Shown: piece after piece, positions 19,818 through 29,953 of the stretch
How positions within the stretch are numbered: position 1 is the first letter of the stretch
Layout: the number at the start of each line of letters is the position of its first letter
Source: an uncultured Verrucomicrobiae bacterium
GTDB taxonomy: Bacteria; Verrucomicrobiota; Verrucomicrobiia; Limisphaerales; UBA11358
Length of the DNA stretch: 64,000 nt
Assembly (NCBI GenBank): GCA_963738245.1
Contig: CAVTWB010000012.1
Coordinates: 295,921 to 359,920 of the forward strand
Reading direction: 5' to 3'
Notes under the pieces: generated by a model
What the model was told of the DNA's origin: nothing
The model's database searches: none
Seen by the model: the letters and a program-made list of their open reading frames with translations, nothing else
Position numbers and translations under genes: made by a program

Positions 19818-20005
19818 GTGTCTCGAAGAGACGAAACGATAATAGCCCGGCGTTTTAACGCCGGGGATGCCGTGGAATATCCGAGTCCCGCAGAGACGAC
19901 CGAAAACGTCTGCCGTCCCTGCGGGACTCGAATTGTTTATGGATTGTTCCCGGCATTAAAATGCCGGGCTATTTTCAGGGGTTCCTTCGGAACCGGCTTT
20001 TGCAG
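19818..20005. repeat. REP-like hairpin cluster
   Basis: CCCGGCGTT-tt-AACGCCGGG, AGTCCCGCAG..CTGCGGGACT, CCCGGCATT-aa-AATGCCGGG. Confidence 0.55.
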
Positions 20006-20368
20006 CTAATACACCAGCACCAACACCGCCGCAGCCTGCGCCGACTTCACCACATCCTCAAACTTCTCATCTGCCGTGTTCGGCGCTTTGAGTTTGGCAT
20101 CCACGTCCGGCACCGATTCCAGGAAGCTCAACAGCAGGCTGCTCTTGACCGCGTAATTCACATTCTCCGGCAACGCCCCGCTCGCCGCCAGCGCCGTGAC
20201 GCATCCAGCTTGGCCGACACGATGCTGATGACGTTGCCCCGCTCATCCACCAGCGCCCCGCCCGAATTGCCCGGCTGCACCGGCACGCTGATTTGAAAAT
20301 AGCGCGGGTCATCCCCCACGCCGGACAGCGACGCGATTTCCCCCTTGGCCAGTTTGGGCGAAAATAAT
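20006..20368 (-). pseudogene. 3' fragment of a trypsin-like (S1C) serine protease; 5' half missing and one internal frameshift
   Basis: Own translation: KLAKGEIASLSGVGDDPRYFQISVPVQPGNSGGALVDERGNVISIVSAKLDA, then a frame change near 20195-20206 to TALAASGALPENVNYAVKSSLLLSFLESVP..VLVLVY-stop. No His/Asp catalytic half upstream. Confidence 0.65.
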
Positions 20369-20376
20369 TTGAAAAT

Positions 20377-21075
20377 TCAGTCTGATGGATTGTTTTCGAA
20401 CTTCTGCTTAAACACATCAATCCATTTTTCTTCATTCCTATAAACTGTGGAGGGATTGATTTCGATTGTAGCAATGTCGCGTAATTTCTCTTTAATTTTT
20501 TCAAACCGAGCACTCGGCATTGTCTGACTGATTGTAATTTTTGTGATTATCGTCTCAATGTTATCAATCTTTATCTCATGGTGATTTTTATCTCCCTCCC
20601 AAATGACTCGGAATTCCTTTTCAAATCTATAAGGCCATCGTTTTATAAATGGAAGCATTTCAACGCAGTCATCTATTGTTCCATCATTAATTTCTTCAAA
20701 TCTCTTATACACAACTGAACCGAATCTCAAATTATCACCATCGTTTTTGCGTGAAAATAACAATTTTATTAGTTCGGTTTTGTCGAATTCAATGCAGCAT
20801 CCAGATATTCCATTTGCAAAAGCCTTCCAGTGATGAATTGTTTCGTGTTCCTTAAGAAAACATAGTGCTAAAAGACTTTTTGCAGGTTCAGATTGGCTGC
20901 AACTACTTATCTTTCTTTTTCGATAAATCTCCAAAAGTTCTGTATCGTTTTCATCATCCCAAAATTTTGGATCTGAAAAAACAAGACTCTTTTTTTTCAA
21001 CATGCGCAACAATACTGGAAGCGTTGTAAATCTGTTTAATTTTGTGAAAGCGGTTTCGGTTGACATATAGCGCAA
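20377..21075 (-). CDS. DUF2971-like protein
   Basis: N-terminal LNRFTTLPVLLRMLKKKSLVFSDPKFWDDENDTE and central LCFLKEHETIHHWKAFANGISGCCIEF resemble DUF2971 signature blocks (from memory, no HMM run). Confidence 0.55.
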   Translation of the reverse strand: MRYMSTETAFTKLNRFTTLPVLLRMLKKKSLVFSDPKFWDDENDTELLEIYRKRKISSCSQSEPAKSLLALCFLKEHETIHHWKAFANGISGCCIEFDKTELIKLLFSRKNDGDNLRFGSVVYKRFEEINDGTIDDCVEMLPFIKRWPYRFEKEFRVIWEGDKNHHEIKIDNIETIITKITISQTMPSARFEKIKEKLRDIATIEINPSTVYRNEEKWIDVFKQKFENNPSD

Positions 21076-21078
21076 ATG

Positions 21079-22221
21079 TTATGGAGCTGGAAACTGAACT
21101 GCCACGTTAGAAGAATTTGCTGTGATGAGGTTGTCATTACTCAACATCACTTGCATCTCCGATTTTCCGTCTGAATGAACTCGAACCAGCCAAAAATACT
21201 CTTCAGTCTTGTCTGAAACTTCTCTTTGAGCTTGCGCTACTAAAAAAAATTCGCCTTTTGTGGGTAATTGAAATAAAAACTTTCCATCTGCATCCGTTTT
21301 AGCTAATGCGATTGGAGTTGGCAAATTGCCAAAATAAATTGGGGTTGTGGATACCAACTCTGCAACTCATCTCGTATGGTTTGCAATTCGTCTGTTACAG
21401 TTTTCAATTCGTCGTTTATGGGTTCCAATGAGCATCTAAAGGCAATTTTTGGTTTGTTAACTGGCCTTCTAAACGAGGAACTAACTCGGCTAATTTGGCT
21501 TCTAAAACCTCTTGAGAATTTGTGTAGCCATCGGATTCGTCACTGGTCTTTTGCCATTCTTGGCGCAAGCGGTCTTCTTCGCTAACTTGCTTTAAATAGT
21601 CAGGATATAATCGCTCATGTGACGAGTCCCATTTCGACTGCATTTCCAAAATCGTTTTTTTCTTACTTTCCAGCTTTTGCGCCTCCTCTTGCATCGAGGC
21701 CAATAAAGAACTATCACCATGTTCGCTATACCAAACATAGCTTCCAAAGTGGTTTCATTACACCGTAAATCTGGCCGGTTAAATCCCACCTACTTTCTTT
21801 TTATCGGACCAAATCTTGGCATATTGGATTTTCAAGTGTCCAGTCAAAAGTAGCATTATTATATTTCTCTCTGATGCGTTCTTGTTGTTGCTTTATTTCA
21901 TTTGTAGATTTGTCTTCCAAATCGGCCTCGTCTTTTTCCAAATCAGCTTTCGTCTTTTCCAAGCTATCTCTCTTATTTTCTAAATCGTTTTTTGATTTTT
22001 TTTAATCAGCCCTGTTTTTTTCAAGTAGGCCGTAGTTATTGCATTGCATGATTCAATTTGCTGTTGGTCAAAAATGGAAATTGGAACAAGATAACGCTTT
22101 AGATTTTCACCGCTTTTCGTTACAATGAAAACACTTCCGTCAATTTTTTCTTCCCTCGGGGAACAGCCAGCAAAAGCAATGAAATAAGAAAAAGACCAAT
22201 AAACAATCTTGCAAATTTCAT
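21079..22221 (-). pseudogene. decayed lipoprotein gene (signal peptide, coiled coil, carboxypeptidase-regulatory-like C-terminus) split over at least 5 frames
   Basis: MKFARLFIGLF at 22221 joins ..YFIAFAGCSPREEKIDG (lipobox) only via a frame change in a T-run. KNDLENKRDSLEKTKADLEKDEADLEDK, MASMQEEAQKLESKKK.. and TDADGKFLFQLPTKGEFFLVA follow in other frames. Confidence 0.55.
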
Positions 22222-22372
22222 ATTGATTTGCAGATTGAAACGCCAATTGCCCCAATCGTCCATCCCAAAATGAAAACCGGAAAAGAGACCGCTGCCCCTG
22301 CGGAATTCAGATTGCGCTGTCAATAAAACAGACAACCCTGTTCCAACCTTTGGACACCGGGGCCATTTCCAT

Positions 22373-22640
22373 GACCATGGAAAACATTTCGTTGACCATG
22401 GAGCTTGGAAATGGTCATCGGAAACTTTCGTTGACCATCGGAGCCGTGGAAATGGTCATGGAAATCTTTTCCTTGACCATGGAAACTTTCAATGGTCATG
22501 GAAATGTTTTCGTTGACCATGGGAACCTTTTAAATGGTCATGGAAATGGTTTCGTTGATCATGTAAACCGTTTACATGGTCATGGAAATGTTTTCCTTGG
22601 TCATGGAAACCTTTTGGATTTCTTGGTCATCGAAATGGCC
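22373..22640. repeat. 13 tandem units of about 21 bp, consensus G[AG][CT]CATGGAAA(C/T)nTTTCnnT
   Basis: Core starts at 22373, 22394, 22413, 22433, 22454, 22475, 22494, 22515, 22536, 22557, 22578, 22599, 22625. Units alternate TGACCAT and its complement ATGGTCA. Confidence 0.85.
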
Positions 22641-22908
22641 TGAAACCCTCCCCCCCCTTGCTTCAAAGCGGGATTTTGCCATCACAACACATTTTTAACC
22701 AGTAAAACGGGCGTTTGCTGACGTTTACGAAACATTTATAGAAGTAATTACGATAAGGAATTAACAGATTAACAGGCTGGATGTGGAATGGTGCAAATGT
22801 GAATGGCATAGCCTGATGCTAACGAGCAGTCATTAAGGTTCAACAACTGAACCGAGGAAAAAATAAAAATGAAATAAAGATTAAAACACGAAATCGAAAA
22901 TAAAAACT

Positions 22909-23531
22909 ATGAATGTGAAACCTGCCATCGGATGGCTTAATACCGACAGCGACGAACTGCTGATCAATGATGTCAGCGTGGTCTTGAAGGCCCTGGCCGA
23001 CAACGTCGCCATCTACAAACTGCCCGACCCGCCATTGGCGGACGTCCAGCTCGCGCTGGACAATTCTCCACGGTGGTTCACATGGTGGGCCGCAGCCCGG
23101 CGGACAACATCAACAAAGACAACCTGCGCCTGGTGCTCACCAAGCTCGTGCGCTCGCTTTCGTATTATGTGGCCAAGGCGTGCAACGGCAGCATGGCGAA
23201 CCTGATTTTGAGCGGGTTTCCGCCCCAAAAGAGGCAAGGGCCAGCCCGTTGGCATACCGGCCCAGCCGCAAGGCCTCGTGGTCAAGCATGGCGACCCATC
23301 TCGGCGAGCTGGCGGCCAGGGTCAACCCGGTCTTTGGCGCGGTCCATCTACAACTACCGCCTGACGGCGAACACGCCCGGGGCGGTGCCGGTGATCGTGC
23401 AGGACACGGCGTCCATCCACACGTTTGAGGGCCTGATTTCCGGCGTGAAATACACCATTGATGTCAGTGCGTCGGGCACGGGCGGCACCATGAGCGACTG
23501 GAGCGGTGCGATCAGCCTGACCGCCGATTAA
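22909..23531 (+). pseudogene. decayed gene for a protein with a C-terminal fibronectin-type-III-like domain (about 4 frame changes)
   Basis: MNVKPAIGWLNTDSDELL..LALDN, then (about 23064) FSTVVHMVGRSPADNINKDNLRLVL..SGF, then KGQPVGIPAQPQGLVVKHGDP, then GELAARVNPVFGA, then IYNYRLTANTPG..GVKYTIDVSASGTGG..SDWSGAISLTAD-stop, using all three frames. Confidence 0.55.
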
Positions 23532-23576
23532 ACATTCTGTCTCCCATGCGCGCGCCGGATCAGTTCCGGCGCGTTT

Positions 23577-26500
23577 TTATTCACCATCATTGTTGCCGCC
23601 GTTTTTCTTTTCCCAACTGCGCCGCGCCTTTTCCGGCAGGCTGGTGTCCACTTTCGCGTAGTAAGTCTCCTCGCCGAACAGCTTGTTGGCGGCGTGCTCC
23701 AGTTCCAGCGACGGCGCGACGCTGAACCGCTCGTTCGTGTCCATGAAAACCGTTCCGCCGCCCGGTCGCATGAAGCACAACAGCAACGGGCATTTGCCGG
23801 GATGCGCGGCGACGAGTTCCTGAATCTTGATCATGTCGTCCGGCTGCAGATGCGCCGAGTGCAGGCGCAGATGAACCTGCTTGGTGTATTTTTTCGGCGC
23901 GTCGGTGAGCGGCAGGATTTCCTGCGGGAAAATCTTCGGCTTGTCCTCGCCGGTGCTGACTTCGCCGATGACGAGAATCGCCTTGTTCGCTTCGAGCAGC
24001 GGACGGAACTTGTCGTAGTCGTTCATCACGAGCAGTTGCACCGAGCCTTCCAAATCCTCCAGCGTCACCATCGAATACGGCTTGCCGGATTTTTTGGAGA
24101 AGCCGTGCGTGACCGCCGCGATCATGCCGCCGATGCGCGTCAAACTGCGGTTCGGCAGCTCGGCGAGCTTCGCGGTGTTCGTGAGCGAATATTTTTCCAG
24201 CAGCGGCACCAGCGGCGTCAGCGGATGGCCGGTGACGTAAAATCCGAGCAGCTCTTTTTCGTGCGCGAGCAGTTCGTGCTGCGGCCATTCCGGCAGATTG
24301 GAAATCGCCTCCGGCATCGGCGGCGCTTTTTCTTCCAGCGCGCCGAAGAGCGAGCTTTGCCCTTTTTGCTTGTCGGACAAAATGCTCGCCGCGCGCGCCA
24401 TCGTGCGCTCGATTTGTGCGAACAGCGTCGCCCGCGACTGGCCGAAACAATCGCACGCGCCGGTTTTGATCAATGCTTCCAACGGTTTTCGCGTGAGCGT
24501 GCGCCCGTCCACACGCTCGCACAAGTTCGGAAAGCGTCTTGAATTTTCCGCCTTCGTTGCGCGCCTTCAAGATGGTTTCAACGGCGGCCTCGCCCACGCC
24601 CTTGATGGCCGCGATGCCGAAACGGATGCGCTGTTGTGATAGTGGGACAGGCGTCCCGCCTGTCGTGTTGCCTTGGTATTTATCTTTGGAACTGGACAGG
24701 CGGGACGCCTGTCCCACTATGGCTGCGGGCAGGCTCGCAGTCATTCCTGCTCCGAGTCGGAAATTTTTTCCAGACAAACCGGCCTTGCTTGGATTTTCCT
24801 GAATATAGTGTCCGAATTTTTCCAGGCTGGCCTCATCGCGGACAATGTGATCGAAAGATTCGTCCTGCCAGAATTCGCCTTCGCGCCCCAGAAACTTGTT
24901 GGCCTCGTGGGCCGTAAATGATTTCCAAGCGTGCAAAATATCGGAGAGCTTGTGTTCCATCAGCGGCCGGACGATGAGGTGGACATGGTTTGGCATGATG
25001 ACGTAGCTGCCCAAAACATAGCGCTCGCCATCGAAATGGCGCAAGGCATTCTCGACCATGTCAGCCACATCGGGATTTTTCAGCCAGCACGCACCGTGAG
25101 CGTCATCCAACTGCGACTCCATCTGTTCGCGGAATTCTTCCATGACGGGTTCGGAGGCTGCACCGGCGGTGCGCACCGCCGCTTCGCGTTCCTGCTTCCA
25201 TCGGATGTAAACTTCGTTCGGCAGCGAATCAGCCAGCCGGAATGTTACGAAATAGGTTGCCCCGTCCTGCCGCCAATGCGGCAGGTGCCGGCTTTCAATG
25301 CTCGCAGGACGGGATTTGTCGAAGGGCGTGAACGGCAGTGGGACGGGCTGTAGTGGGACAGGCGTCCCGCCTGTCGAGTTCGTGTTTTGGAGTTTTCCTT
25401 TTTCAAAATCTTCTTTGGAACTGGACAGGCGGGACGCCTGTCCCACTACCGATGCGGGCGCAAAAAACACGCCGCTCTCGTTCACGTCCGGGCCGAGCAC
25501 CTCGATGTCGAACTCGCGCGCCTCGGCGATGTATTCGGCGAGCTTGTCCGTGTTCGCCATGTCGTTCGTCATCATGGCGCAGAAAAATTCCACCGGATAA
25601 TTCGCCTTCAGATACGCGGTCTGATACGCGACGATGGCATACGCGGCGGCGTGCGATTTGTTGAAACCGTAGCCGGCGAATTTTTCCAGCAAGTCGAAAA
25701 TTTGGTTTGCCTTCGTCTTCGGAATATTGTTTTTCTCGTGGCAGCCCTTGACGAAATCCTCGCGCTGCTTGGCCATTTCCTCGACCTTTTTCTTGCCCAT
25801 CGCGCGCCGCAGCAAATCCGCCTTGCCGAGCGAGTAGCCGGCGAGCAACTGCGTCGCCTGCATCACCTGCTCCTGATAAATCAGGATGCCGTAGGTCTCC
25901 TTGGAAATGGATTCGAGCAGCGGATGCTCGTATTTGATCTCGATCTCGCCGTGGCGGCGCTTGATGAAATCAGGAATCAGATCCATCGGGCCGGGCCGAT
26001 ACAGCGCGACGAGCGCCGTGATGTGCTCGACGGAACTGATCTGGAATTTTTTGCACAGGTCGCGCATCCCGCCGGATTCCAACTGGAACACGCCGAGCGT
26101 TTCCGCGCGGTTCAGCAGGTCGTAGGTTTTTTTGTCGTCGAGCGGCAACTGGTCAATGTTGATCTGCACGCCGTGCGTTTGCTTGACCATCTCGCAGGTG
26201 TTGCGGATGACGGTCAACGTTTTCAGCCCGAGAAAATCCATCTTCAGCAGGCCGAGGTCGCCGACGGGATTCATCGCGTATTGCGTGACGATGCCGCCAT
26301 GTTCGTCCAGCTTGAGCGGCAGCAAATTCACCAGCGGCTGGTCGCCGATGACCACGCCGGCCGCATGAACACTGGCATTGCGCGTGAGGTCTTCGAGGAT
26401 GAGCGCGGTGTCAATCAGCTCGCGCGTGACTTCTTCGGTCTCGTAAGCCTCCTTGAATTCCGGCGACTGCTTGAGCGCCTTCGTCAAATCCATTTTCAGA

Positions 26501-28759
26501 TCGAACGGAATCATTTTCGCCAGCCGGTCGCAGTCGCCATACGGCAAACCCATCACGCGGCCGACATCGCGCACGACGGATTTTCGCGCCCATCGTGCCG
26601 AACGTGATGATCTGCGCGACAGAATCATTGCCATATTTTTTGCGGACATATTCGATGACGTCAGCGCGGCGGTCGTCGGCGAAATCAATATCAATATCGG
26701 GCGGATTAACGCGCTCGGGATTGAGAAATCGCTCGAACAGCAGGCCGTAGCGGATCGGATCCACGTTCGCGATTTCGAGCAGGTAGGTGACAATCGAACC
26801 GGCGGCGCTGCCGCGCGCCACGCAGGCAATGCCCTGGCTGCGGCCATAGCGGATGAAATCGCCGACGATGAGAAAGTAGGAAATGAAACCCGTCTTCTCG
26901 ATGACCGTGAGTTCGAGCTGCAAGCGGTCAATGACCGTTTTGACGGCAGCGGCAACGGCGGGATCGTTGGTTAGTGGCACAGGCGTCTCGCCTGTGTGTT
27001 TCTGTTTTTCATCGCACAGGCAGGACGTCTGTGCCACTAAACCGCCGCCGACACGGTATGCCCCTTCGCCCAAACTTGCTTTCTTGGGATTATCTTGAAT
27101 ATACCGGCCAAACTTTTCCAACTGTTGCTCGTTTCTGACGATGTGGTCGAAGGATTCCGGCTGCCAAAATTCTCCCTCACGATTCAGCAGCTTGTTGGCT
27201 TCTTTCGCAGTGAACGATTTCCACGACTGGAGAATGTCAGATAATGTGTGTCCCATCGCTGGCCGCACCAAAACATGGACGTGATTGGGCATGATGACGT
27301 AGCTGCCCAACAAATAGCGTTCACCATCAAAGTGACGCAGCGCAGCCTCCACCATTTTGGAGACGCCAGAATCGCGCAGCCAGCACTCGCCGATGCCTTG
27401 ATCCAAGTGTCGTTCCAACTTTTTCTCGCATTCTTCGGCAATTTTCCCGGCCAGCTCCTGTTTCTCCGCGTCGGAAAGGTTGGCGGCCTGCTTCGCTTCG
27501 CGCAAAGCGGCGTCACGTTCATCACGCCATTGTTTGAAGACTTCCTGCGGCAGTGAATCATCCAGACGGAACGTTACAAAATATGTTGCGCCTTCCTGCT
27601 GCCAATGTGGCAGGGAACGTGAATGAATGCTTGCCGGACGGGTTTGGTCAAACGCGGTGAACGGCATTAGTGGCACAGGCGTCTCGCCCGTGTGTTTCTG
27701 TTTTTCGTCACACAGGCGGGACGCCTGTGCCACTACATTATACGTCGGCAGCCGCTTCGGATCATCAATGCCCGTGACGACAAATTCTTTTCCTTCCGCC
27801 TTCGCGTGAATCGTGTAGCGCGTGAACAGTCCTTCCGCCAGCCATTGCCGCAAAAAACCTTCGCGCGTGAAATGTTCCGGCGGATGAAACACCGGATAAT
27901 GCAGCTGGCCGAACTTGATTTCCAAATTGCATTTCTCGGCAACCTCCATCGTGTTCTTCACCGCCTCCGGCACCTCGGCGAAACGCGCCTTCATTTCGTC
28001 TGCGCTGCGCAGATAAAACTGTTCCGGCACATAGCCCGCGCTCATGCGCTTGGGGTCGCTCAACAGGGATTGCGTGCCGATGCAGACGAGACAATCGTGC
28101 GCGTGCGAATGGCTTTTCTCGATGTAATGGACGTCATTCGTCGCGACGAGCTTCAGGCCGAATTCCTTTGGCCAATTTGAATCAACTGCTTGATTGACCT
28201 TGGCCTGTTCGGGAATGCCGTGGTTTTGGAGTTCGAGGAAAAAATTTTCCGCGCCGAGCGTCTGCTTGAAGAAATCCACCGCATCGCGCGCCTTGTCAAT
28301 TTGATCCTTCATGATCAAATCGGGAATCTCGCTGGCGAGACAACCGGACATCGCGATCAGACCTTCGCTGTGCTGCGCCAAAATTTCCTTGTCAATGCGC
28401 GGCTTGTAATAATAGCCCTCCAGGTGCGCGGCGGTCGTGAGCTTGATGAGATTTTTGTAGCCGGTCTCGTCCTTCACCAGCAGGCCGAGATGATGATACT
28501 TGTCGCCCTCGACTTTTTTGCGTTCCAGCCGCGAGCCGGGCGCGACATAAACCTCGCAGCCGATGATGGGCTTGATGCCTTTCGCGCGCGCGGCCTGATA
28601 AAACTCGATCACGCCGTGCATCGCGCCGTGGTCGGTGATGGCGAGCGCGGGAAATTTCAGCTCATGCGCCCGCTCCATCAATCTGTCCAAACGGCACGCG
28701 CCATCGAGCAACGAATACTCGGTGTGCAAATGAAGATGGACAAAGTCAGCGTGCGACAT
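23577..28759 (-). CDS. dnaE: DNA polymerase III alpha subunit, interrupted by two in-frame HUH-transposase cassettes and two 1-nt frame breaks
   Basis: PHP domain HLHLHTEYSLLDG. GFISYFLIVGDFI, ARGSAAGS, FLNPERVNPPDIDIDF, ITFGTMGAK|SVVRDVGRVMGLPYG, FNKSHAAAYA, IAAIKGVGEAAVETIL, and OB/C-terminal region. Assembled from track ORFs 26411..28759, 23587..26955 and 23577..24524. Confidence 0.9.
24642..24717. repeat. REPIN-like nested palindrome, type A (cassette 2, DnaE-distal side)
   Basis: Perfect 23-nt arms GTGGGACAGGCGTCCCGCCTGTC / GACAGGCGGGACGCCTGTCCCAC with a 30-nt loop. Each arm is itself a hairpin GACAGGCG-nnn-CGCCTGTC. Confidence 0.9.
25353..25446. repeat. REPIN-like nested palindrome, type A (cassette 2, DnaE-proximal side)
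   Basis: Same perfect 23-nt arms with a 48-nt loop. A partial extra copy AGTGGGACGGGCTG lies at 25338-25351. Confidence 0.9.
26974..27037. repeat. REPIN-like nested palindrome, type B (cassette 1, distal side)
   Basis: GTGGCACAGGCGTCTCGCCTGTG .. CACAGGCAGGACGTCTGTGCCAC. 23-bp stem with 1 mismatch and 2 G-T pairs. Loop of about 18 nt. Confidence 0.85.
27670..27733. repeat. REPIN-like nested palindrome, type B (cassette 1, proximal side)
   Basis: GTGGCACAGGCGTCTCGCCCGTGTG .. CACACAGGCGGGACGCCTGTGCCAC. Differs from the 26974 copy at 5 of 64 positions. Confidence 0.85.
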
Positions 28760-28843
28760 GAAACCAGTTTAACTTCCAACCGCCGAGACACCAAGACGCA
28801 AAGTTTCGCCACAAAGAGTTTTCCACTGTGTCCTGGCGGTGAA

Positions 28844-29953
28844 TTAGTTCTTGAAGAAATCCTCGATGACTTCCGCCACGCGCTGGATTTGCGCGTCGGT
28901 CAGTTCGGGATAAATCGGCAGGCTCAAGCATTCGCGCGCGGCCTTTTCCGCCACCGGAAAATCGCCGGGCTTGTGGCCGAGGCTGGCGTAACATTTTTGC
29001 AGATGCAGCGGCAGCGGATAATGCAGCGCGCAGCCCACGCCGTTGGCGTCGAGATGTTCCTTCAATTTGTCGCGCTGCGGGTGGCGCACGACGTAAAGAT
29101 GGTAGGCGCTTTCGGCATAGGCGGCCTCGCGCGGCAATTGCAGCGGCGTGTCCTTCAACAGTTCGTGATAGCGATGCGCCACGCGGCGGCGTTCATCCGT
29201 CCATTTTTGCAGATGCGGCAGCTTCACGCCGAGCACCGCGCCCTGGATGCCTTCCATGCGGTAATTGAACCCGACTTCGTCGTGATAATAACGCACATTG
29301 GAGCCATGTTCGCGCAAGGACCGGGCGCGCTTGGCGAACTCCGCGTTGTTCGTGACGAGCGCGCCGCCTTCGCCGCACGCGCCGAGATTTTTGCCGGGAT
29401 AAAAACTGAAGCAGGAAATGTCGCCGAACGTGCCGACGATTTTGCCTTTGTATTTCGCGGCGTGCGCCTGCGCGGTGTCCTCGACGAGCGGCAGCTTGTG
29501 CTTTTTGCAAATTGCCAGAACCGGTTCAAGGTCGAACGGATGTCCGTAAAGATGCACCGGCATGACGGCCTTGGTTTTTGAAGTGATGGCGCGTTCGAGC
29601 AATTTAGGATCGAGATTCATCGTGGCGTCGTCCACGTCCACATAAACCGGTTTCGCGCCGACGTAGGAAATCGCCCAGCTCGTCGCGACGAACGTGAACG
29701 GCGTGGTGACGACTTCATCGCCCGGCCCGACGTTGAGCAGCATCAGCGCGACGTGCAGCGCGGAAGTGCCGCTGTTGAATCCGACGCAGTGTTCCGCGCC
29801 GATGAATTTGGCAAAGTCTTTTTCAAACTGGACAACGTCCGGCCCGAGGCAGAACGAGCAGTGGTCGAGCGTGCGCGCGATAGCGGCGTCCAGTTCCTTG
29901 CGGACGCCGCGGATTTGCGCCGGCAAATCGAGATATGGAATTTTGTCAGCCAT
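28844..29953 (-). CDS. DegT/DnrJ/EryC1/StrS-family PLP-dependent sugar aminotransferase
   Basis: 369 aa. Family-typical IPYLDLPAQ.., FEKDFAKFIGAEHCVGFNSGTSALH, and FSFYPGKNLGACGEGGALVTN (PLP-lysine region). Confidence 0.85.
   Translation of the reverse strand: MADKIPYLDLPAQIRGVRKELDAAIARTLDHCSFCLGPDVVQFEKDFAKFIGAEHCVGFNSGTSALHVALMLLNVGPGDEVVTTPFTFVATSWAISYVGAKPVYVDVDDATMNLDPKLLERAITSKTKAVMPVHLYGHPFDLEPVLAICKKHKLPLVEDTAQAHAAKYKGKIVGTFGDISCFSFYPGKNLGACGEGGALVTNNAEFAKRARSLREHGSNVRYYHDEVGFNYRMEGIQGAVLGVKLPHLQKWTDERRRVAHRYHELLKDTPLQLPREAAYAESAYHLYVVRHPQRDKLKEHLDANGVGCALHYPLPLHLQKCYASLGHKPGDFPVAEKAARECLSLPIYPELTDAQIQRVAEVIEDFFKN

Follow-up and report, generated by a model that had tools for sequence, protein, structure and literature searches.

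A REP-flanked tyrosine transposase cassette in frame within dnaE of a Verrucomicrobiae bacterium, probably translated as part of DNA polymerase III alpha

REPtrons, in which a REP-associated tyrosine transposase (RAYT) is accompanied by repetitive extragenic palindromes (REPs), and the paired REPs called REPINs have been well described (Nunvar 2010; Bertels & Rainey 2011, PMC3116915; Ton-Hoang 2012, PMC3333891; Messing 2012, PMC3479197). In E. coli, a GTAG tetranucleotide 5' of the REP is required for binding and cleavage by the RAYT TnpAREP (PMC3479197). REPs also occur within genes: Di Nocera et al. (2013, PMC3733652) describe GTAG and CGTC REPs and REP dimers that lie in frame in housekeeping genes and encode 20–30 aa, and note such intragenic REPs especially in replication/repair genes, tRNA synthetases and DnaE/DnaE2, with the most in the verrucomicrobium Opitutus terrae. 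Unexpectedly long RAYT proteins were dropped from earlier surveys as gene fusions or annotation errors (PMC6006769). Here we analyzed a 64-kb stretch of contig CAVTWB010000012.1 from an uncultured Verrucomicrobiae bacterium (64,000 nucleotides; hereafter the window), whose dnaE gene carries a complete REPtron in frame (cassette 2). We consider it probable that this REPtron occupies a permissive turn of DnaE, is translated as an active passenger domain of the polymerase, and is gained and lost via its REP pairs. REPs within genes and REPtrons have both been reported before; literature searches, including for RAYT together with DnaE, yielded no account of an in-frame REPtron translated within its host protein, and the arrangement is apparently undescribed.

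The dnaE gene, encoding DNA polymerase III alpha, runs on the (−) strand from position 28759 down to a stop at 23577 (23577..28759). Pfam matched its PHP, DNA_pol3_alpha, finger and HHH_6 domains, and three-frame translation revealed the usual DnaE order of PHP, palm/NTPase, fingers, helix-hairpin-helix (HhH) and OB. Cassette 2 occupies 24640-25449, exactly 270 codons in frame within dnaE, and its paralogue, cassette 1 (26972..27735, (−) strand; exactly 255 codons, also in frame), occupies the variable linker between PHP and palm; both are stop-free, and both lengths are exact multiples of 3. Cassette 1 comprises a type-B REP pair (27668-27735), a RAYT with its own ATG, and a second type-B pair (26972-27039). 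Once both cassettes are taken out and two 1-nt frameshifts are mended, dnaE encodes 1201 aa, which match an intact orthologue of 1200 aa (P0121) at 96% identity. An earlier note on this DNA, made from the letters alone, had described cassette 2 as a palindrome-bounded transposase cassette in frame with DnaE, which holds; it had missed the REPtron identity, the membership of the arms in a widespread REP family, the frameshifts, and the generality of in-frame insertion.

Pfam, sequence motifs and an AlphaFold2 (AF2) model identified the cassette-2 core (24727..25338, (−) strand; ~200 aa) as a RAYT, that is, a Y1 HUH transposase. The core scored 31.2 bits against Pfam Y1_Tnp (cutoff 23), its best NCBIfam family was NF047646 REP_Tyr_transpos (E = 6.6e-20; 71.5 bits, below the equivalog cutoff of 80), and transpos_IS200 reached 18.7 bits against a cutoff of 55. 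It has the HUH (NHVHLIV), WQ (FWQ) and catalytic tyrosine (YIQENP, the YxxxNP motif on helix alpha-D) motifs; these match H59/H61 and Y115 in an alignment with E. coli TnpAREP, and their residues are invariant or nearly so in the alignments. The AF2 model had a mean predicted local distance difference test score (pLDDT) of 80, exceeding 90 in the core and falling below 50 in the hairpin-encoded residues 1-28 and 245-270; the RAYT core is thus predicted to be well folded and the hairpin-encoded stretches to be disordered. The best Foldseek match in the PDB was 4ER8_A, TnpAREP with a REP hairpin (E = 1.1e-06, target-normalised TM-score 0.63), followed by the TnpA proteins of ISDra2 and IS608 (IS200/IS605). 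The 810-nt cassette-2 unit contains no second open reading frame (ORF), and its RAYT (type A) shares 65% identity with the paralogous RAYT of cassette 1 (type B). This composition, a RAYT with an inverted pair of cognate GTAG-type REPs on each side, makes cassette 2 a REPtron.

Each flank of the RAYT resembles a REPIN or BIME. The upstream REP pair (25351..25448), proximal to the 5' end of the gene, has a 48-nt loop and a GTAG tag on both outer ends; the downstream pair (24640..24719) has a 30-nt loop and outer ATAG tags. What the earlier note had said about this architecture was confirmed, apart from one slightly shifted coordinate (below). Both pairs are built of perfect 23-nt inverted repeats, GTGGGACAGGCGTCCCGCCTGTC / GACAGGCGGGACGCCTGTCCCAC (25353-25375 and 25424-25446 upstream; 24642-24664 and 24695-24717 downstream), both loops have the lengths it gave and the common ending CTTTGGAACTG, and direct-repeat analysis agreed with the 711-nt spacing of copy starts (237 codons). 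Likewise, each arm can form a hairpin of its own (GGACAGGCG-TCC-CGCCTGTCC, 9-bp stem), and all four palindromes of the two cassettes share TAGTGG...CCACTA ends. These TAG...CTA ends are the (G)TAG tag of GTAG-type REPs (PMC3479197, PMC3733652). The arms extend imperfectly to 31 nt downstream (94% complementary) and 32 nt upstream (97%), and the predicted folds of the single-stranded DNA (ssDNA) are highly stable, at −36.2 kcal/mol (z = −12.9) for the downstream hairpin and −39.7 kcal/mol (z = −11.0) for the upstream one. Each flanking pair encodes 27-33 aa in frame (upstream VVGQASRLSSSKEDFEKGKLQNTNSTGGTPVPL, downstream IVGQASRLSSSKDKYQGNTTGGTPVPL), as intragenic translated REPs do. Arm types A (GGGAC...GTCCC) and B (GGCAC...GTGCC) differ by compensatory changes. 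Within the window, the 19-nt arm core was found solely at these hairpins, and 100 shuffles yielded 0 matches.

In cassette 2, the end of the 3' arm is partially duplicated in tandem (25336..25350, (−) strand): 15 nt in frame encode QPVPL, such that the coding strand reads CCTGTCCCACTACAG followed directly by CCCGTCCCACTGCCG, or PVPLQPVPL. The earlier note had found this partial extra arm and had placed it at 25338-25351, 1-2 nt off. It had also allowed for an assembly artefact, which we reject because the duplication is present, with substitutions, in L001, an independently assembled contig that is ~95% identical to the window across dnaE. The 15-nt repeat is missing from the cassettes of two further relatives, L004 and L129. 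Its proposed origin as a footprint of end processing is unsupported; an in-frame tandem duplication inherited by both lineages accounts for the partial arm equally well.

We scanned species-representative genomes for the REP core. The core was detected in at least 120 genomic stretches over many phyla, and, among the matches listed, a RAYT lay nearby in 0 of 120. In 120 stretches scanned with a pattern open to any combination at the variable positions, the two variable stem pairs were complementary in 134 and 137 of 138 cases. A wide occurrence without a RAYT nearby is the pattern expected for a REP/RAYT system. The idea that the arms might be a generic REP unrelated to these transposases thus proved half right: the REP is widespread, but it is not unrelated, as RAYTs of this clade are regularly flanked by it, and inverted REP pairs surround the RAYT in L004, L005, L006 and L007 as well. 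The 51 of 138 REPs that fall within long open frames are uninterpretable without a gene-call control, and hence were not used as evidence.

Two of the three frames of a REP arm are open, and the third contains TAG. Free-standing RAYTs of the clade begin with MPVLP..., inside the upstream 3' arm, and extend as far as the downstream 5' arm (...VGQASxLS; ...VGQASCLS...). Solo intragenic REP pairs (VGQASRLS...GGTPVPL) are accordingly translated in the same frame as the RAYT. A unit of RAYT plus one REP pair (711 nt, 237 codons) is therefore frame-neutral, and dnaE is read straight through. Among RAYT relatives fetched with their flanks, the spacing of the flanking repeats was a multiple of 3 for 15 of 20 internally embedded RAYTs, versus 10 of 33 free-standing ones (Fisher P = 0.002).

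Such spacing, like the 270 stop-free in-frame codons of cassette 2, would be needless if the insert were taken out before translation, and this argues against a removable element excised by hairpin-guided RNA processing or programmed DNA excision, or by protein splicing. DnaE is a classic intein host; moreover, the upstream 5' arm is complementary to the downstream 3' arm (30 nt, 93%) and could join the ends of the cassette in RNA or ssDNA, and solo-hairpin alleles indicate that, over evolutionary time, the DNA can lose the unit. However, the insert begins V-V-G and ends P-V-P-L before S, with no Hint or intein domain and no intein boundary residues. Permissive Rfam searches of 22000-29000 returned only spurious, sub-threshold matches of the long hairpins to miRNA precursors and no known RNA family, and we know of no bacterial pathway that would splice such an RNA. 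We give removal in any of these forms hardly any credence. An intein in particular was considered and rejected for want of a Hint or intein Pfam match, the boundaries being ...APAS/VVGQ... and ...PVPL/SQQR... (the slash marks the junction).

We investigated how the RAYT of cassette 2 could be expressed. No in-frame ATG or TTG lies between the upstream hairpin and the transposase core, in agreement with the missing start reported before, and the sole in-frame GTG of the cassette is buried in the 5' arm of the upstream hairpin. Similarly, the N-terminal methionine is missing in 4 of 6 DnaE-embedded RAYTs. L001 also carries cassette 2, with a RAYT protein 95% identical to that of the window. Comparison of the two RAYT cores revealed a ratio of non-synonymous to synonymous substitution rates (dN/dS) of 0.069 (35.5 synonymous and 10.5 non-synonymous differences), with dN/dS above 1 in the other two frames of the same DNA; the DnaE segments gave 0.009-0.106. 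Purifying selection on the RAYT protein, as judged from these substitutions, is as strong as that on DnaE. The four 23-nt arms showed 1 difference in 92 nt where ~24 would be expected at the neutral (synonymous) rate (P = 2e-11), the arms of the upstream pair being the same in L001 apart from one base; the loop and linker codons vary freely, and no protein-level constraint was seen there between the window and L001. Together, these results indicate selection on the RAYT as protein and on the arms as nucleic acid. Given the missing start codon and the purifying selection, read-through translation as part of DnaE would be the most economical reading. Of the earlier statement that this RAYT can only be made as part of DnaE, the lack of its own start thus stands, and the translation within DnaE we infer.

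Intact ORFs spanning DnaE and RAYT (DnaE::RAYT) are found elsewhere: six full-length ones of 1456-1468 aa in the P0228 cluster, from independent NCBI, ENA and JGI assemblies, and others in L128, L129 and L130, amounting to at least nine independent short-read assemblies. Such ORFs could also house a dead but tolerated passenger, i.e., a real in-frame insert in a working DnaE whose RAYT is inactive and conserved only so as to fold harmlessly. The hosts of embedded RAYTs (below) are very diverse and share no common function, some DnaE::RAYT lineages have lost their flanking hairpins to decay, the sites also tolerate a solo REP pair that is translated, and translated intragenic REPs and Rickettsia palindromic elements (RPEs) are known as tolerated (PMC3733652). 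Nevertheless, the RAYT dN/dS is as low as that of DnaE, the arm DNA is conserved far past neutral expectation, and the 62 divergent embedded copies longer than 450 aa (below) all keep the HUH histidines, with the tyrosine at least 90% conserved, which folding alone would not demand. We regard an inactive passenger as unlikely, and an active one, translated with DnaE, as the better account.

The window dnaE contains two apparent +1 frameshifts on the (−) strand. At 26581, AAA has become AAAA where intact relatives have GCG AAA TCC or GCA AAA TCC, and at 24522, GAACTTGTGCGAG (the change being GAACTTGTGC) stands where relatives have GAA CTT TGC, GAA TTG TGC or GAA CTG TGT. Both frameshifts coincide with positions at which close relatives use alternative synonymous codons, and for this reason we read them as probable consensus errors of a strain-mixed or long-read assembly, as the sequence pattern suggests. 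Several other adjacent same-strand ORF pairs checked in the window are all separate genes, with no split genes among them, which does not indicate an assembly generally rich in frameshifts. The frameshifts, together with an L001 dnaE broken in at least five places, are what would be expected of decaying junk, that is, a dnaE pseudogene with IS-like insertions, replaced by another polymerase, in which the in-frame state is coincidental; that frameshifts are not evidently common elsewhere in the window points the same way. Against this, the dN/dS values given above are low for both the DnaE segments and the RAYT, a +1 change at a synonymous-codon alternative is the pattern of consensus error, the second frameshift (24522) is not in L001, L001 has a split ABC-transporter gene too, both cassettes are stop-free exact multiples of 3, and intact DnaE::RAYT ORFs occur in the independent assemblies listed above. 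A pseudogene is very unlikely on this evidence, and we favor a functional dnaE with an in-frame REPtron.

Occupancy of the cassette-2 site (site 2) was compared across 119 close DnaE orthologues (82-96% identical). The site was empty (...FFAPAREGKAIRFG...) in 112, held one solo translated hairpin in 6, and held a full cassette in 1, within an intact 1466-aa ORF. Solo hairpins were found at the same DnaE sites in P0125, P0133, P0138, P0170, P0238 and L001. In E. coli Pol III alpha, the counterpart of site 2 is the turn at about residues 825-829, immediately ahead of the HhH module; the site is a permissive variable surface turn of DnaE. The cassette-1 site (site 1) is a hypervariable linker that is unalignable to any solved DnaE, and in L001 contains one solo in-frame hairpin only. 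Site 1 also hosts at least two other, unrelated families of palindromic-looking translated repeats in different lineages, one of the form ...LTPALSPGEREK...LSPLPGGEGQGEG... and another of the form ...VGDDVRSLTS...EPPHVGSY..., in two groups of orthologues (P0138, P0144, P0145, P0162, P0186 and L128; P0126, P0185, P0188, P0210 and P0222). With several repeat families settled there, the site-1 loop serves in this clade as a sink for palindromic elements in general.

The type-B RAYT at site 1 of the window shares 83% identity with the RAYT that L128 carries at site 2 (host DnaE 85% identical) and 70% with the RAYT of P0228; the type-A RAYT at site 2 of the window is just 65-70% identical to all other DnaE-embedded RAYTs. 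RAYT type is thus independent of insertion position. The window type-B RAYT and the P0228 RAYT have an 11-residue insertion in common, and both L128 and P0228 have B-type hairpins or remnants of them. The pairing of arm type with its own RAYT that the earlier note had raised receives modest support here, since the RAYTs nearest to the type-B protein are those with B-type hairpins or remnants. Furthermore, the order of the long-loop and the short-loop hairpin of cassette 2 is reversed between L001 (10230-10330 and 10950-11050) and the window (25351-25448 and 24640-24719). Such a swap would be as expected from a cycle of excision and reintegration, or from gene conversion between the flanking REP pairs. 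The independence of type and position, the loop swap and the solo hairpin of L001 lead us to propose that the unit of RAYT plus one REP pair is gained and lost via the REP pairs that flank it as direct repeats. No donor locus for a near-identical type-A RAYT was found elsewhere, the best metagenomic match being 66% identical. In L128 (2850-3050) and L130 (2850-3050 and 3550-3800), the hairpins have decayed beside a RAYT ORF with intact catalytic motifs, a hint that the domain has become fixed or domesticated in DnaE.

Embedding of this kind extends well beyond DnaE. About 40% of the RAYT clade lies in frame inside other host genes: host extensions were present on half of the best 120 RAYT protein matches, ~43 of which are C-terminal fusions to D-aminoacyl-tRNA deacylase (Dtd), and at 33 of 80 metagenomic loci the RAYT lay in frame within a large ORF. 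Searching a library of 1.84 billion representatives with the RAYT core retrieved 10,849 proteins at E ≤ 1e-3, and among the 141 newly listed top representatives (50%-identity clusters), 62 exceeded 450 aa. The hosts cover 66 Pfam families, including DnaE, PriA, DinG-like helicases, ClpB, CarB, class I and II tRNA synthetases, CCA-adding enzyme, HsdR, type IIG/ISP methylases, ExoVII and adenosine deaminase. This breadth argues against a DnaE-specific function, and for a general strategy of finding a safe haven in large essential genes. Delivery to the replication fork, considered as a general rationale, is weakened by hosts such as tRNA synthetases, CarB and adenosine deaminase.

The Dtd fusions are an arrangement conserved among Verrucomicrobiota (L006 3001-4254, L140, and the ~43 among the best 120 matches). 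Here an in-frame REPtron extends the C-terminus of Dtd: a first REP pair links Dtd to the RAYT, and another follows the RAYT. This locus may be the vertically inherited home of the RAYT.

According to the mechanism that we propose, a solo REP pair in a loop of the host protein would serve as a landing pad. A unit of RAYT plus one REP pair could then be gained or lost between pairs in direct repeat, by recombination, replication slippage or RAYT-mediated strand transfer, and its loss would leave a solo hairpin. While resident, the RAYT would be made solely as a passenger within DnaE, joined to it by flexible linkers that the hairpins encode, and may stay an active single-stranded-DNA nuclease/transferase on REP hairpins. 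E. coli TnpAREP is functional as a monomer (PMC3479197), which makes such activity plausible in an embedded domain. An in-frame seat in an essential gene would provide expression without a promoter or start codon of its own, and a shield against imprecise deletion. More tentatively, and with somewhat more doubt than confidence, the RAYT clade as a whole (Verrucomicrobiota, Planctomycetota, Acidobacteriota and other phyla) could be a non-splicing counterpart of inteins: an active HUH cassette, resident in permissive loops of essential proteins such as DnaE, PriA, tRNA synthetases, CarB and ClpB, expressed only by its host, moving between REP-pair landing pads and, in DnaE, PriA and DinG-like hosts, carried to the replication fork, at which its REP substrates become single-stranded.

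Several observations weigh against this account. The core falls short of the curated cutoff for REP_Tyr_transpos. That the RAYT is translated within DnaE is argued from the missing start and the purifying selection. The two 1-nt frameshifts (26581 and 24522) make a very recent pseudogene formally possible. No REP copies were found outside dnaE in the window, and the hairpin decay in L128 and L130 implies that mobility has not been kept everywhere. Empty and occupied alleles do not differ cleanly, as five host codons (R-E/D-G-K-A) are replaced by other flanking residues and not just interrupted; consequently, a clean target site could not be derived from them. Finally, the broad range of hosts (tRNA synthetases, CarB) opposes any benefit linked to the replication fork or to DnaE itself; a passenger that is purely selfish would fit it.

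Around dnaE, three further features were noted. Directly upstream (28760-28853), the window is without the HMGL-like gene that relatives have between the aminotransferase gene and dnaE (L001 6416-7627; L002 430-1440), an indel of ~1.1 kb. Downstream, positions 20000-22000, between an RNase R-like gene and a repeat array, have a GC content of 0.416 versus ~0.58 elsewhere and only short ORFs. The array itself (22345-22640), intergenic and ~1 kb downstream of the dnaE stop, consists of ~12 copies of a 21-nt unit in alternating orientation containing TGGTCATGGAAA / TTGACCATGGAAA (Tandem Repeats Finder periods of 21, 42 and 82); it is 87% conserved in L001 (13105-13269), and may be an array of protein-binding sites.

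RAYTs have been seen as single-copy, extragenic and domesticated; here, a large clade resides inside essential genes and apparently depends on host translation, which changes the view of how REP/RAYT systems persist and are expressed. Many long RAYT proteins, at least in this clade, appear to be real in-frame insertions, and embedded RAYTs explain the puzzling annotation of DnaE, PriA, Dtd, tRNA synthetases and other proteins as oversized or "fused" in metagenome-assembled genomes. The embedded REPtron is a DNA-level parallel to inteins and Rickettsia RPEs, and DnaE::RAYT proteins with their cognate type-A and type-B hairpins are directly testable constructs.

Among known systems, IS200/IS605 elements (IS608, ISDra2) resemble cassette 2 in the HUH/Y1 fold of the transposase, TnpA, and in that it recognises subterminal hairpins of single-stranded DNA; however, their left and right ends differ from each other, many of them carry tnpB, and they are multi-copy and disrupt their targets, whereas cassette 2 has near-identical symmetric REP-pair ends, no tnpB, and preserves the frame. 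Inteins are likewise selfish in-frame residents of essential, often replication proteins, expressed by the host and protected from deletion, but they occupy conserved active-site motifs, whereas the cassettes sit in variable loops, and cassette 2 has no splicing domains or boundary residues and no sign of removal from the protein. The solo hairpins at DnaE sites 1 and 2 represent the same phenomenon as the intragenic REPs of Di Nocera et al. and the Rickettsia RPEs; those are short repeats only, and the available part of that report contains no ~200-aa RAYT domain inside a host ORF. With the REPtron, cassette 2 shares a Y1 HUH RAYT flanked on both sides by inverted cognate REP pairs, the 5' (G)TAG tag, compensatory stem changes, and a REP dispersed far beyond the RAYT. 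A classical REPtron lies outside genes, has a start codon of its own and is typically present once per genome, whereas cassette 2 lies within an essential ORF, has no ATG or TTG, and is one of two paralogous units in a single gene.

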